Source: Escherichia phage vB_EcoP_SU10. From it: DNA of 64,000 nucleotides. This document shows, one piece after another, positions 36,234-49,961 of the stretch. The stretch lies in the sequence record NC_027395.1, one strand, 5' to 3'. The position numbers were made by a program, and so were the translations under genes. The notes beneath the pieces were generated by a model, which saw nothing but the letters and a program-made list of their open reading frames with translations, was not told where the DNA came from and did not search any database. Position 1 is the stretch's first letter. Every line of letters starts with the position of its first letter.

Positions 36234-36242
36234 TATACATTA
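36234..36242 (-). promoter_or_regulatory. TAATGTATA promoter-like element (minus strand) upstream of SSB gene
   Basis: Exact 9-mer on minus strand about 59 nt upstream of ATG 36174. Confidence 0.5.
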
Positions 36243-45073: not shown

Positions 45074-45730
45074 TTAACTCTCCAAAGTTTTCTTCAGAGC
45101 TGCCCACGAGATTGGGTAGAGTTTAGCCATCTCTTCATCTAGAGATTTAGCAAACACTCGAACTTCATATTGAGCGTGAGAGGAGAGTCGCTGACGGCAC
45201 AACTCAAACCAGCCATACAAAGAACCAGTCCACACCCACTCAGTGATCATCCCCTGAGGAAGAACAAATCGAGCTTGCTCTGGTGCAATAAATTCAATCA
45301 ACTTGTCATATGCTGCTAGAGAAGCTTCATATGCATCGTTAATCAGCATTAATGCTTCAGCTCGCTCTCCGTCGATGAGTTGAATCCCTGAACCTGCATG
45401 GAGGTCCGAAGGTCTCGCAAAAATCTCTTTAGGGATGAAGACTTCAACTGCTCCATCTTTATACCGCCGGGACATTTCGTTCCACGAGAATCCAACCTGA
45501 TGCTTGCCCAGCTGTCTCGCAATTGCGATAGGTGCTTTGCATCGGAAACTGACTTGCGGGTGTCGGAATGGGGTAACATGCCTCTCTCTTGCGAGGAAGT
45601 TGATGAGACGTTCATCACGTTCATTTAAATCACCTTCACGGGTTACGCCAAAGGAAACTCGAGCTGCGTTTACTACGCTACGATCACTTCCCATAGCTTC
45701 GATTAATGTTGCTTGTAGTTGTTCATTCAT
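45074..45730 (-). CDS. thyX: Flavin-dependent thymidylate synthase (ThyX family)
   Basis: RQLGKHQVGFSWNEMSRRY matches the ThyX RHR...S..E.S.RY signature region (as KHQ variant). Confidence 0.75.
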   Translation of the reverse strand: MNEQLQATLIEAMGSDRSVVNAARVSFGVTREGDLNERDERLINFLARERHVTPFRHPQVSFRCKAPIAIARQLGKHQVGFSWNEMSRRYKDGAVEVFIPKEIFARPSDLHAGSGIQLIDGERAEALMLINDAYEASLAAYDKLIEFIAPEQARFVLPQGMITEWVWTGSLYGWFELCRQRLSSHAQYEVRVFAKSLDEEMAKLYPISWAALKKTLES

Positions 45731-45745
45731 CCGTGAATATCCTTA

Positions 45746-46021
45746 TTACTTATTTCTCAGGGCTGTGTCCAAAAATGCTTTCAGGTTTGCTTCAGTCTGC
45801 ATACCGGAGAGGCTGTAGTGTGCACCACTGTTACGGTCAGGCACAACAAAAGCAGGGATGCTTCGTACACCATACTTAACAGCTTGTTCACGACCATCAC
45901 CTACAAGGATGTTAATCTCTTCCACTTCTACATCAAACTCCTTAACAACCTTCTCAAAGGTAGGAGCCATTGCTTTACATGGAGCACACTGATCACTATA
46001 AAACTTAATTACTTTAGACAT
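45746..46021 (-). CDS. Thioredoxin-like protein
   Basis: CAPC active-site motif in a 91-aa thioredoxin-sized protein. Confidence 0.8.
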   Translation of the reverse strand: MSKVIKFYSDQCAPCKAMAPTFEKVVKEFDVEVEEINILVGDGREQAVKYGVRSIPAFVVPDRNSGAHYSLSGMQTEANLKAFLDTALRNK

Positions 46022-46269: not shown

Positions 46270-46881
46270 TTAGTAAGACACATCACCACTTGAATGGGAC
46301 ATGTTGCTCTTGACGAAGTAGCAATACTTGCCAAGACCTTCATTAATTTCTTGAAGCATACTCTGATCGACAGGGTAAGTGGCTAAATCGCCATCAAACT
46401 CATCCATCTTCTCAATAATACACATCAAGGTCATGCACATATCAGAGAGCATACCGTCCATGTCTAGATCAGCATTACCCTCTGAGAACCAAGCATGAGA
46501 GAGGTAGTTAGCTGCTGTAGCATCCACTTTAACACAGTGATAACGCATACGTTCAGCAATACGATCTCCTACTTGTCGTGCGTAATTTTCCAACTCATCA
46601 AACATACCATGAACACCCTGAAATCCTGCACCAGAGACATTCCAGTGGTAGTTTTTAGCTTTGATATGCAAGAGTTCCATATTAGCTTGTAAGCAGCTCA
46701 GGATGTGTTCTAGGCTGTTTCCGCTAATCATACCCTGCATCGTTTCAAGGCGAGAGATTGAAAGCTCTGACCGATCTAACATATTATAGTCGGCACGACC
46801 AATATCAGGTAAATCAAAGACATTCTTATGCATTTGGGTTTTCTCCATCAAGTTCAACTGAGTTAGCAACGTTACGTGCAA
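46270..46881 (-). CDS. Dps/ferritin-like protein (start probably internal)
   Basis: KNYHWNVSGAGFQGVHGMFDEL...DRIAER matches the Dps HWNV.G..F..VH...D...AER signature. Confidence 0.65.
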   Translation of the reverse strand: MHVTLLTQLNLMEKTQMHKNVFDLPDIGRADYNMLDRSELSISRLETMQGMISGNSLEHILSCLQANMELLHIKAKNYHWNVSGAGFQGVHGMFDELENYARQVGDRIAERMRYHCVKVDATAANYLSHAWFSEGNADLDMDGMLSDMCMTLMCIIEKMDEFDGDLATYPVDQSMLQEINEGLGKYCYFVKSNMSHSSGDVSY

Positions 46882-47155: not shown

Positions 47156-47227
47156 AACTCTCTCCTGTAAAATACAAATTCTTATTGTACTCTATATACA
47201 TTTGAGAGTTATCATATCTACTACCAA

Positions 47228-47437
47228 TCAGTAGTAAATTACTTTAGACATAAAAGAACCAGTGTTAGGGTCTTCATACCAGCGATGTATGTCAGCGCTT
47301 TTTACTATTGTGCCCAGAGTCTTCAACTGTTTCTTAGCAATACGAGCCTCTTTGCGAGTGTCAAACAATTTGATGTTATCTTTTCTCATGTGTTGCTCAA
47401 GATCCCAAACAACATGAATAGTCCACATCTTTTTCAT
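47228..47437 (-). CDS. Small protein, tandem paralog 3 of 3 (69 aa)
   Basis: Shares the W.V.V.D...TR..AR..KK...G...SKV.YY pattern; start overlaps upstream stop. Confidence 0.5.
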   Translation of the reverse strand: MKKMWTIHVVWDLEQHMRKDNIKLFDTRKEARIAKKQLKTLGTIVKSADIHRWYEDPNTGSFMSKVIYY

Positions 47438-47646
47438 TAGTAATGTACCTTTCCGCTAATATAAACACGACCAGAGGAATACTCTCTGGCCTTATGAATA
47501 CTGATGCTCTTGATCATATCCATATTAAACATAGATTTTTTAAAATCTCGAGCCTGTTGACGAGTGGGTAGTGCAGTCATAGTCATACCACCTGATGCCC
47601 ACTTAATCTTCGCTAACCAGAACTGTCTCATGGTGATTGGTCTCAT
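47437..47646 (-). CDS. Small protein, tandem paralog 2 of 3 (69 aa)
   Basis: See paralog 3. Confidence 0.5.
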   Translation of the reverse strand: MRPITMRQFWLAKIKWASGGMTMTALPTRQQARDFKKSMFNMDMIKSISIHKAREYSSGRVYISGKVHY

Positions 47647-47843
47647 TAGTAATAAACCTTACTGTTGGCAAGAAAAGCACCTTCGCTATTCACAATAGCT
47701 TTTCCAATAGTGATCTTACCTGACAGACCTATCCCCTTAAAAGTTTTCTTAATTCGACGAGCGTGCTCTCGAGTATTAACAAAATCTACAGAGTTTATGT
47801 CACCTGTCTTGTTGTCATGTACACGAACAATCCACTTTTTCAT
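47646..47843 (-). CDS. Small protein, tandem paralog 1 of 3 (65 aa)
   Basis: See paralog 3. Confidence 0.5.
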   Translation of the reverse strand: MKKWIVRVHDNKTGDINSVDFVNTREHARRIKKTFKGIGLSGKITIGKAIVNSEGAFLANSKVYY

Positions 47844-48046
47844 TTTACTAAACCCTTCATGTAATCATAAAGATCATTAGAAGCTTTACCCCATTCAAGG
47901 TGCTTCTTATCCATATAACGCTTACAGACTTCTTTATCACCTTCATCACAAGTATCAAATCGATGACACGCCCGACCAAATACCATTGCTTTTAACTGAG
48001 CATCGGTAGTTAAATATTTAAGTTCTTGAAACTCTTCTTTATTCAT
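47840..48046 (-). CDS. Hypothetical protein (68 aa)
   Basis: ORF coupled to neighbours. Confidence 0.45.
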   Translation of the reverse strand: MNKEEFQELKYLTTDAQLKAMVFGRACHRFDTCDEGDKEVCKRYMDKKHLEWGKASNDLYDYMKGLVK

Positions 48047-48580
48047 TTACACACCCTTAGATGCAACTACACCTTCAGAGTTATTATAACGACCTTTCAC
48101 TGCATAGGAGTGTTCCCCTGCATGAGAGTGCTCAAACATGACCATCTGACCAACACGCATACCAGCACGAACTCGTAAGCTGTGGTGCTTGGTTACGTTA
48201 TGGAATTCAAATGTCAGCTTACTGCTATTAAATCCTGCATCTGCCCAACCTGCGTGAAGGTGGTTCAAACCACAACGAGCCATAGATGAACGCAGAACAA
48301 ACAGACTTGATATGTTGTCTGGAAGATTAAACTCCTCCATAGAGTGAGCCAAGAAGAACTGACCCGGAGTGATAACCAAACCCTCTTCAGGAATCTTTAC
48401 TTCCTTCCACTGAAGATTCTCTTTCGCATCAATATCAACGATGCCATCAGCCTGTTCTTCAACAAGGATAGTATCACCAATACGGATATCCACACTAGCA
48501 GCGTTAACATACTTATGCTCCGCATCCAGATAGCCATTGTCAATTACATCATGCAGTTCAATACTTCCTAGTAAACTCAT
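48047..48580 (-). CDS. dcd: dCTP deaminase / dUTPase-family protein
   Basis: RSSMARCGL...AGWADAGF...TFEFHN pattern typical of dCTP deaminase family. Confidence 0.8.
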   Translation of the reverse strand: MSLLGSIELHDVIDNGYLDAEHKYVNAASVDIRIGDTILVEEQADGIVDIDAKENLQWKEVKIPEEGLVITPGQFFLAHSMEEFNLPDNISSLFVLRSSMARCGLNHLHAGWADAGFNSSKLTFEFHNVTKHHSLRVRAGMRVGQMVMFEHSHAGEHSYAVKGRYNNSEGVVASKGV

Positions 48581-48589
48581 TCTTATTCC

Positions 48590-49960
48590 TTAGTTATTTG
48601 TTTCTACGTCAAAAGAGATTCCACGACCCGCTTCATCAGCAAACCGAACTGTACGGGTTTGAGGTTCTAATACTTCAGGGTTGTTAGTAATAAAGCGATC
48701 AGCGAGACTGCGGCTGACAGCCTCAGCGAGTTCCTCATGAGAAGGAGTATCAAGATCGGAGAGACTGCCTACCACATCTTGGGCCACACCTTCATCAGTC
48801 CACACAGCCCTAACAGGTGCGTTGATATCACCAACAGCGAAACCCTGACCAGAGAACTGACGTGCACTAACGTTGAAGCCGTTTGGTCTACCACGAGAAG
48901 GACTAGCCATCCATCTCTCCATAGAATCACTTGTAATACCAAGAGCTTCTTCAAAAGATGTTCTACGAGTAGGGCTTACTCTTCGTGACTCTTGTGCTCG
49001 ACGCATTGCAGGGGCTACAAACACCCCTTCAATTGCATTGTGTCGGTTAGGTTCCTCTTCTCGACCAAGCAGATCACCACCCGTGTTAGTCGTTAAATTT
49101 GTCAACCCCTCAGACCAATACGCATGAATCTGACCAGAACCGTGAAGACTAGACATAATCTGAATCTCTTCATAAGGGATTCCAAAGAATCGACTCATGT
49201 CTCGGTTGACACAATATAGAGCACTTGTTGTATCTTCAATAAGAGAAACCTGACCTAATCCATTGACTAGATGACTAACTGGCTGAGGTGTGGGAAGATA
49301 TCGAGTTTGGGCCATGTATTGATGTGCAACTGCTGGAGAGGAAAATCTCAACACTTGTGAGTTAGGCCACTTCTTGTGAACATACCTGATTTCACGACTA
49401 GAGACAACCACTGGACAAGGGGAAGTCATAGCCAAATATCCGTGAGAAGTCATGAATAAGTTGTCAAGAGTCATCGCACCACGGCACATCATAGGAAAAT
49501 TATCCAATACCTCTTCAATAGAAGTAGGATAATTAAACATGAATTGGATACGAACCCCATTCCACTGAAACTCAATAATATCAGTGAATGTTAATTGAGA
49601 ACCCCCAGCATAGGATTCGTTTGTAGCTTCAGCAAGAAGTGATGCATATTCAATATCTTGTGACTCTAGCCATTCCTTCACATTACTTTCAATCTCCCGT
49701 CCAAGCTCTTGCCAACGATCAGTTGGGATGAAAGTGTTTTGAGTTCTTGGTGTTTGTCCTCTGACAATAAAGATATCAATGTCATGTGGAGCTATGTTAT
49801 TAAGGACAGCATCACGAACAGCCCCACCAGTAATGATGGGACAGATACCATCTGGAATCAAGTTGTTGTTAATCAACTGTTCAATGAAGTGACGACCAAC
49901 AGTGATATCAGGTTGTTGAGCAACCTTATCTTCAATTTGGTTAATCGGGATAACAATCAT
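48590..49960 (-). CDS. Nucleotidyltransferase of CCA-adding/poly(A) polymerase type (start at MIVIPINQ)
   Basis: N-terminal ITGGAVRDAVLNNIAPHDIDIFIV (GGxVRD...DxD head-domain signature). Confidence 0.65.
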   Translation of the reverse strand: MIVIPINQIEDKVAQQPDITVGRHFIEQLINNNLIPDGICPIITGGAVRDAVLNNIAPHDIDIFIVRGQTPRTQNTFIPTDRWQELGREIESNVKEWLESQDIEYASLLAEATNESYAGGSQLTFTDIIEFQWNGVRIQFMFNYPTSIEEVLDNFPMMCRGAMTLDNLFMTSHGYLAMTSPCPVVVSSREIRYVHKKWPNSQVLRFSSPAVAHQYMAQTRYLPTPQPVSHLVNGLGQVSLIEDTTSALYCVNRDMSRFFGIPYEEIQIMSSLHGSGQIHAYWSEGLTNLTTNTGGDLLGREEEPNRHNAIEGVFVAPAMRRAQESRRVSPTRRTSFEEALGITSDSMERWMASPSRGRPNGFNVSARQFSGQGFAVGDINAPVRAVWTDEGVAQDVVGSLSDLDTPSHEELAEAVSRSLADRFITNNPEVLEPQTRTVRFADEAGRGISFDVETNN

Positions 49961-49961
49961 T

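Follow-up and report, generated by a model that had tools for sequence, protein, structure and literature searches.

Three consecutive genes of Escherichia phage vB_EcoP_SU10, named A, B and C in the order in which they are transcribed, encode small basic proteins of one family. The window analysed here is the 64,000-nucleotide (nt) stretch of record NC_027395.1 in which the three genes lie, at positions 47,228-47,843 on the minus strand. Comparison of their sequences confirms A, B and C as true paralogues, and structure models confidently predict that each gene encodes one small (7-8 kDa) alpha/beta domain made of a beta-hairpin, a helix and a second beta-hairpin. At a probability of roughly 40%, we read the three products as modules that bind a polyanion, probably nucleic acid, with targets specific to the paralogue and to the allele.

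A lineage-restricted tandem array

The three genes are the following:
47646-47843, minus strand: paralogue A, open reading frame (ORF) of 65 amino acids (aa), isoelectric point (pI) 10.2; orthologue of phiEco32 gp71 (phi32_71)
47437-47646, minus strand: paralogue B, ORF of 69 aa, pI 10.8; orthologue of phiEco32 gp70 (phi32_70)
47228-47437, minus strand: paralogue C, ORF of 69 aa, pI 9.8; orthologue of phiEco32 gp69 (phi32_69)

An earlier sequence-only reading of this DNA had described three consecutive minus-strand ORFs with stop/start overlaps at 47437 and 47646, and the coordinates are exactly so: one base is shared between stop and start (TAATG) at 47646 (A/B) and at 47437 (B/C). Many alleles of B begin five codons further in and yield 64 aa. 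The same reading saw a shared pattern among three diverged proteins and took them for tandem paralogues, in which it was right. In a three-way alignment M1, W, T-R, A-R, K-K, I and the terminal Y are invariant at a pairwise identity of 23-34%, and pairwise BLASTP among A, B and C gives E values of 3e-4, 3e-3 and 6e-6. All three match phrog_4939 ('unknown function') over its full length, from profile position 1 or 2 to 67 of 67 (C, E 1.9e-28; B, E 6e-28; A, E 3.9e-26). Because this profile probably includes orthologues of A, B and C themselves, we ran a jackknife, in which a hidden Markov model (HMM) built solely from the orthologues of one paralogue was compared with the 392 ORFs of the window. 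Each orthogroup HMM ranked the other two paralogues as its best non-self matches (E 1e-3 to 3e-7), the next match lying above 0.05. The family HMM found no fourth copy in the 64-kb window.

About 96 Escherichia and Shigella phage records, all of the phiEco32 group (Kuravirus, Gordonclarkvirinae), match the region at 86-96% identity, and the window is a Kuravirus, a phiEco32-like coliphage. In phiEco32 the orthologues phi32_71, phi32_70 and phi32_69 are all annotated as hypothetical and share 65% (A), 100% (B) and 97% (C) protein identity with the window. Synteny is kept: A/B/C have dCTP deaminase (gp72) on one side and gp68 on the other, beyond which come the Dps-like gp67, thioredoxin and ThyX. 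We found no discussion of phiEco32 gp69-71 in the literature within reach of the search, which did not extend to the primary phiEco32 papers. Megablast matches of 85% coverage had raised the suspicion of a missing paralogue in some relatives; the missing 200 bp correspond to the unrelated 68-aa gene upstream of A.

A profile search of 5.8e9 proteins returned 92 family clusters, and an exhaustive HMM search of 1.84e9 representatives only 25 members; a second search of the 5.8e9 proteins with a broadened profile added no new ones. Neither the HMM search of the 1.84e9 representatives nor two word-indexed searches of the 5.8e9 proteins yielded fusions or bacterial homologues. All members are standalone proteins of 64-87 aa without Pfam domains, and every recovered context is a phiEco32-like replication or nucleotide-metabolism module: the family is confined to phiEco32-like podoviruses. 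Genes of the A/B/C type are present with intact frames in all phiEco32-like genomes examined. Two to four diverged tandem copies always sit, tightly packed, between dCTP deaminase and the promoter P68 (see below), and some genomes carry extra copies between thioredoxin and ThyX. HMM scans of the recovered loci gave these copy numbers:
3 in tandem: the window, phiEco32, Bas91, Bas89, IMEP8, O18-011, Ptacy1532
3 in tandem plus 1 between thioredoxin and ThyX: Paul, NJ01, KBNP1711
2 + 2: locus L006
2 + 1: locus L005
4 in tandem: locus L009
3 in tandem: locus L017
at least 3 in tandem: locus L021
2: locus L004

A neighbour-joining tree resolves orthogroups A, B and C, with their order kept across Kuravirus and Nieuwekanaalvirus, as well as a group D (the thioredoxin-ThyX slot) and a group E. 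As the A-B-C order is kept across the two genera, the duplications are old, and several diverged copies are always retained. One-base overlaps occur in every tandem array seen, and some copies at the second locus are set off by a 15-nt gap. Both the slot between dCTP deaminase (dcd) and A and the one between thioredoxin and ThyX gain and lose members, and in other isolates the same slots hold HNH homing endonucleases.

Details of the two slots are as follows. In the window the thioredoxin-ThyX gap (45731-45745, between ThyX at 45074-45730 and thioredoxin at 45746-46021) is empty; it holds a fourth family member in Paul, NJ01, KBNP1711 and locus L008, two members in loci L006 and L007, and an HNH endonuclease in Ptacy1532 and O18-011. 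The dcd-A slot, an indel and insertion hot spot, contains an HNH endonuclease in Bas89, O18-011 and contig L005. The 68-aa gene upstream of A is present in Paul, Ptacy1532, NJ01, IMEP8 and O18-011, and absent from phiEco32 and Bas91. Labels in public records can mislead here. The fourth family member of NJ01 (L014) is misannotated as 'putative ABC transporter', and among these relatives (NJ01; IMEP8, L015) and several GenBank records the Dps-like gene is called 'integrase' and a 66-aa ORF 'isoleucyl-tRNA synthetase'. It is the Dps-like gene, and not the triad, that bears the names 'integrase' and 'DNA-binding protein'.

Basic charge, predicted fold and hypervariable cassettes

All 112 of the 112 members are basic: their pI is 9.7-11.1, and at a length of about 67 residues they carry a net charge of +5 to +12. 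Since no member departs from this, positive charge is a family trait that has outlasted divergence to about 25% identity. Across the 112 sequences, the alignment columns of zero or near-zero entropy are the strand-1 Trp, the helix N-cap T-R, A, R, K and the final Tyr. Column K53 is conserved within each orthogroup and variable across the family (entropy 1.05). The spacing of R42, R46, K49 and K53 (alignment columns; i, i+4, i+7, i+11) would place them on one face of the helix, and the interleaved hydrophobic positions 45, 48, 52 and 55 presumably pack on the sheet.

AlphaFold2, run with family alignments, gave a predicted local distance difference test score (pLDDT) of 79 and a predicted template modelling score (pTM) of 0.62 for A, and 88.8 and 0.72 for C. 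Both models show the order strand 1, strand 2, helix, strand 3, strand 4. A Foldseek search of BFVD returned nothing but family members below E 1e-3. The sequence-only reading could not place the fold, and this holds good after structure prediction and fold search: the fold is a simple one without a detectable homologue. Below threshold (E 0.03-0.14, TM score 0.5-0.6), the matches of model A are enriched in Microviridae 'nonstructural protein' and 'DNA binding protein' entries.

Profile libraries were equally silent. At the curated cut-off Pfam had no match for A, B or C (best DUF7204, 14.4 bits where 27 are required), and of 34 members scanned no more than two hit any one Pfam family; NCBIfam had no match at cut-off (best acylphosphatase, 13.5 against 105). 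No match came from a sequence-profile search of the PDB, where the best hit, Sec3 at E = 1, is spurious. None of the PADLOC defence-system HMMs matched the A/B/C family at E up to 1. For known anti-defence proteins (Acr, Ocr/Ard, Gad, Tad, Acb and others) the negatives are indirect, no dedicated anti-defence library being part of these searches: the 5.8e9 proteins gave no named relative, and BFVD gave family members alone at E below 1e-3. Two specific domain types did not fit. An AP2 or integrase arm-type DNA-binding domain, suggested by the motif F-x-T-R-x-E-A-R, has a three-stranded sheet followed by a C-terminal helix and should match Pfam AP2 or Arm-DNA-bind; the family has the wrong topology and no HMM or fold match of this kind. 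Nor does it show the strand-helix-strand-strand-helix-strand core with ligand loops, or the significant structural similarity, of a PII or ACT-like ligand-binding domain.

Variation in these genes is sharply localised. Among Kuraviruses, the products of most flanking genes (exonuclease, Dcd, gp68, Dps-like, thioredoxin, ThyX) share 95-100% of their residues with the window, apart from a few divergent alleles; identity to the window is 65-72% for A (92% only to Ptacy1532), 88-100% for B and 54-99% for C. A 60-nt sliding DNA comparison bounded the variable cassettes of A and C:
47701-47760, minus strand: cassette of A, about aa 29-47, covering the C-terminal half of the helix, the loop and the start of strand 3
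47281-47340, minus strand: cassette of C, about aa 33-52, in the same structural position as in A

The A cassette is 42-50% identical in nucleotides to that of five Kuraviruses, with flanks that are 95-100% identical; the window carries the rarer allele, 92% identical to Ptacy1532 and WFI101126 and about 70% to most others. The C cassette is 65-68% identical to Paul, Ptacy1532 and IMEP8 and 100% to phiEco32 and Bas91, and the adjoining P68 gap and gp68 gene are 98-100% identical DNA. Dividing each gene in three puts most replacements, in A, B and C alike, in the middle segment, which runs from the C-terminal half of the helix through the loop into the start of strand 3, as the proportions of nonsynonymous differences (pN) show:
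A: pN 0.42-0.46 in the middle segment, 0.02-0.12 in the others
B: pN 0.19 in the middle segment, 0.00 and 0.02 in the others
C: pN 0.21-0.32 in the middle segment, 0.13-0.15 and 0.05-0.07 in the others

For IMEP8 and O18-011 the C-terminal segment of C reaches a pN of 0.34-0.50. Synonymous sites of the cassettes are saturated too (proportion of synonymous differences, pS, 0.5-1.2), and pN/pS stays below 1 with two exceptions, both in C-terminal segments: C against IMEP8 (pN 0.50, pS 0.35, on small counts) and A against phiEco32 (pN 0.11, pS 0.10, on six changes in all). The 33 N-terminal codons of B show no nonsynonymous change against 4-8 synonymous ones in six of seven comparisons, the seventh being phiEco32, whose copy does not differ from the window over this stretch.

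The three genes assort their allele classes independently: the B and C of the window recur in phiEco32 beside a different A, and the A of the window recurs in Ptacy1532 beside a different C. Because synonymous sites of the cassettes are saturated as well, the cassettes look like old alleles shuffled by recombination, accompanied by copy-number flux, rather than the product of a burst of recent positive selection; simple positive selection as the sole cause of the variability is thereby ruled out. The claim that the family is rapidly diversifying therefore holds in part: each gene has a hypervariable segment and copy number ranges from 2 to 4, whereas the duplications are ancient and pN is mostly below pS.

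Functional readings of the array

We propose that A, B and C would act as non-enzymatic binding modules. The helix opens with a basic stripe (T-R-x-x-A-R-x-x-K-K-x-x-K) that would hold on to a polyanion, with nucleic acid as the likeliest one, and the adjoining recombining hypervariable patch (C-terminus of the helix, loop, strand 3), together with the differences between paralogues, would set the exact target. Their role would be accessory, in host takeover, genome protection or anti-defence, and would fall before the replication phase or within it. What points to a binding module is the combination of a tiny single domain, a universal positive charge, an Arg/Lys stripe, an exchangeable patch and multiple diverged copies. 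A host-interaction or anti-defence role would be compatible with the patterns of variability. Several points weigh against the reading as nucleic-acid binders. Some of the invariant Arg and Lys residues could form structural salt bridges, a non-specific DNA or RNA binder has no obvious need for a hypervariable patch, and surface charge and exposure are deduced from sequence periodicity alone. Nor are A, B and C among the 34 proteins detected in the SU10 lysate (PMC4281155).

That proteome included the Dps-like protein, gp68 and thioredoxin (PMC4281155). Small Lys/Arg-rich proteins are poor tryptic targets that give few peptides, so their absence is weak evidence, and the strong purifying selection outside the cassettes argues that A, B and C are made and functional. 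The same non-detection (PMC4281155) is what would speak for chance ORFs, decaying duplicates or selfish filler. We consider this very improbable in view of the intact frames in all phiEco32-like genomes examined, pN well below pS, the confident predicted fold, the conserved Shine-Dalgarno-like elements and, again, the few tryptic peptides to be expected.

The strongest competitor, though clearly less probable than nucleic-acid binding, holds that each paralogue blocks a different host protein, either a defence component or a housekeeping hub, without touching nucleic acid. The basic stripe would dock on an acidic surface and the hypervariable patch would follow variation in the host target. 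Small size, lineage restriction, copy-number flux, localised hypervariability in near-identical genomes and the independent assortment of A, B and C alleles all suit such inhibitors. What speaks against them is that many known small phage proteins that block DNA-binding defence factors mimic DNA by being acidic, whereas this family is uniformly basic. The array also stands in the replication and nucleotide-metabolism block and not in the far-right early block to which host takeover is ascribed (PMC8948821). The unexplained defence resistance of Gordonclarkvirinae would, for its part, fit inhibitors of this kind (PMC11990801). These phages are 'remarkably resistant' to restriction-modification and to most tested defences, with no known inhibitor or DNA modification (PMC11990801). 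As speculation, the array, which neighbours the Dps-like gene, is a reasonable candidate for this resistance. The specific version, in which modular recombining inhibitors or genome-protecting DNA binders explain the resistance and each paralogue or cassette allele neutralises a different host nuclease or sensor via an undescribed basic mini-fold, we hold to be unlikely.

Slightly less likely still is a pseudo-symmetric complex of A, B and C, which would be made in equal amounts by coupled translation and would serve phage DNA replication or the supply of deoxynucleotides (dNTPs), for instance by scaffolding or regulating neighbouring enzymes. The A-B-C order kept across genera, the one-base overlap in every tandem array seen and the constant linkage to the dcd, Dps-like, thioredoxin and ThyX genes could be read in this way; judging from the order of secondary structures, a single helix would leave one face of the four-stranded sheet uncovered, which would favour oligomerisation. 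Composition nevertheless varies, the copies numbering 2, 3 or 4 and members of groups D and E taking the place of A, B and C or standing alongside them; some copies lie at another locus with a 15-nt gap, and overlaps are generic in the operon. Since alleles reassort freely, the partners do not co-vary either. Binding of a small ligand is more improbable again: the proteins would be truncated ACT/PII-like nucleotide modules, acting as sponges for immune signals or as allosteric sensors of dNTP metabolism. The invariant R, R, K, W and Y are of the kinds that bind phosphate and stack on bases, a His occurs in strand 3 of B, C and most of the distant members, and the genes lie among those of nucleotide metabolism. 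Against this, the family resembles neither a known sponge nor ACT/PII in sequence, or to a significant degree in structure, and it lacks the second helix and the T-loop; W and the terminal Y are probably in the hydrophobic core, and a ligand pocket would call for less positive charge than the net +5 to +12 found here.

Genomic setting and comparison with known systems

The features that frame the array are these:
47840-48046, minus strand: 68-aa gene (phrog_2347) upstream of A, overlapping it by 4 nt; outside the A/B/C family
47195-47203, minus strand: AAATGTATA, gp36-sigma middle promoter P68, found by pattern search in the 72-bp gap just downstream of C
8993, 25627 and 36306 (plus strand), 36234, 43026 and 47195 (minus strand): matches to WAATGTATA, by pattern search

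Each ATG of A, B and C is preceded, 9-10 nt on its 5' side, by a Shine-Dalgarno-like AAGG. For B and C this AAGG is embedded in the conserved Lys-Val codons close to where the gene before them ends; C itself has no coupled gene downstream, and its corresponding Lys codon is AAA, not AAG. Overlaps of 1 or 4 bases and abutting genes are common throughout the operon, and dcd abuts the 68-aa gene. The overlaps are thus compatible with the translational coupling first suggested for the triad, which seems plausible from the gene layout, but they follow an operon-wide rule and are not peculiar to these genes. A consensus scan of the region for sigma-70 promoters and terminators gave counts equal to those of shuffled controls. 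A terminator-like hairpin with a T-rich run within B (47469-47491, minus strand) was set aside as probably due to chance, the number of such sites equalling that of shuffled controls.

Promoters of the gp36 sigma factor have a single-element consensus, tAATGTAtA (PMC8948821), and P68 is a middle promoter for which both in vitro and cryo-EM validation has been published (PMC12276001). phiEco32 has exactly the same 72-bp sequence following C, and eight phages from two genera show no change in the P68 element or around it. The window holds six matches to the gp36 middle/late consensus WAATGTATA against 1.3 expected; those at 36234 and 36306 are divergent and back-to-back, probably a late/middle switch region. 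Upstream of the triad on the minus strand, the window has no gp36 element that is perfect or has one mismatch. As P68 lies just downstream of C, the triad forms the 3' end of a transcription unit that stops at P68.

Three neighbouring genes deserve mention. The 475-aa nucleotidyltransferase at 48590-50017 (minus strand) has a sub-threshold match to the PolyA_pol head domain (E 0.002, 18.8 bits against a cut-off of 23), and its orthologues have weak or faint matches to Pfam Gad2 (PF26128), a hint of kinship with Gabija anti-defence 2; a part in DNA modification is a speculation of the BASEL authors. The dCTP deaminase (48047-48580, minus strand) occurs in two allele classes, at about 99% and about 59% aa identity to the window (loci L005, L013 and L016), and where the divergent class is found, an HNH endonuclease is inserted immediately downstream of it. 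The Dps-like ORF at 46270-46881 (minus strand) has a TTG start, 203 aa and a 56-nt overlap with a 109-aa gene; a start at the ATG at 46833 would give the 187 aa (564 nt) annotated for its orthologues.

Orthologues of A, B and C were already annotated as hypothetical in some 90 sequenced coliphages and grouped as one PHROG. New here are the lineage-restricted array that is always multi-copy, the uniform basic charge with its invariant helix stripe, and the sharply bounded hypervariable cassette of each gene. The family is a well-defined, testable unknown with some unusual population genetics. Kuravirus-like phages are often put forward for therapy against avian-pathogenic and multidrug-resistant E. 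coli, and the array offers a concrete and cheap test candidate for their unexplained resistance to restriction and other defences. If A, B and C are general nucleic-acid binders of the replication phase, they will be of specialist interest only.

Among known folds, we compared the family with two-layer alpha/beta sandwiches: the PsaD core, the palm of nucleotide cyclases and reverse transcriptases, PII/SbtB, BMC shell proteins and ribosomal bS6. Sequence identity to these generic sandwiches is 2-18%, with scores as expected for unrelated small folds. Their strand-helix-strand-strand-helix-strand order differs from the strand-strand-helix-strand-strand of the family, which lacks the second helix and any catalytic or ligand motif. 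A possible parallel is the dsRNA-binding domain, which like the family has a basic motif ('KKxAK') at the N-terminus of a sheet-packed helix; in that domain the motif contacts the phosphate backbone. Its topology of helix, three strands and helix is unlike that of the family, it is not among the fold matches listed, and no Pfam match links the two. T4 Dmd antitoxin, AcrIIC3 and multi-gene anti-defence or accessory loci resemble the family in being shorter than 120 aa, alpha/beta and phage-specific; loci of small inhibitors and anti-defence genes are likewise variable between close relatives and arranged in compact arrays. The direct counterpart is phiEco32 gp69-gp71, the same genes, ordered and placed alike between gp72 and gp68/P68, in a genome without the extra 68-aa gene that the window carries upstream of A. 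As these genes are already catalogued (phiEco32 gp69-71, phrog_4939), the window adds a new member to a known kind.
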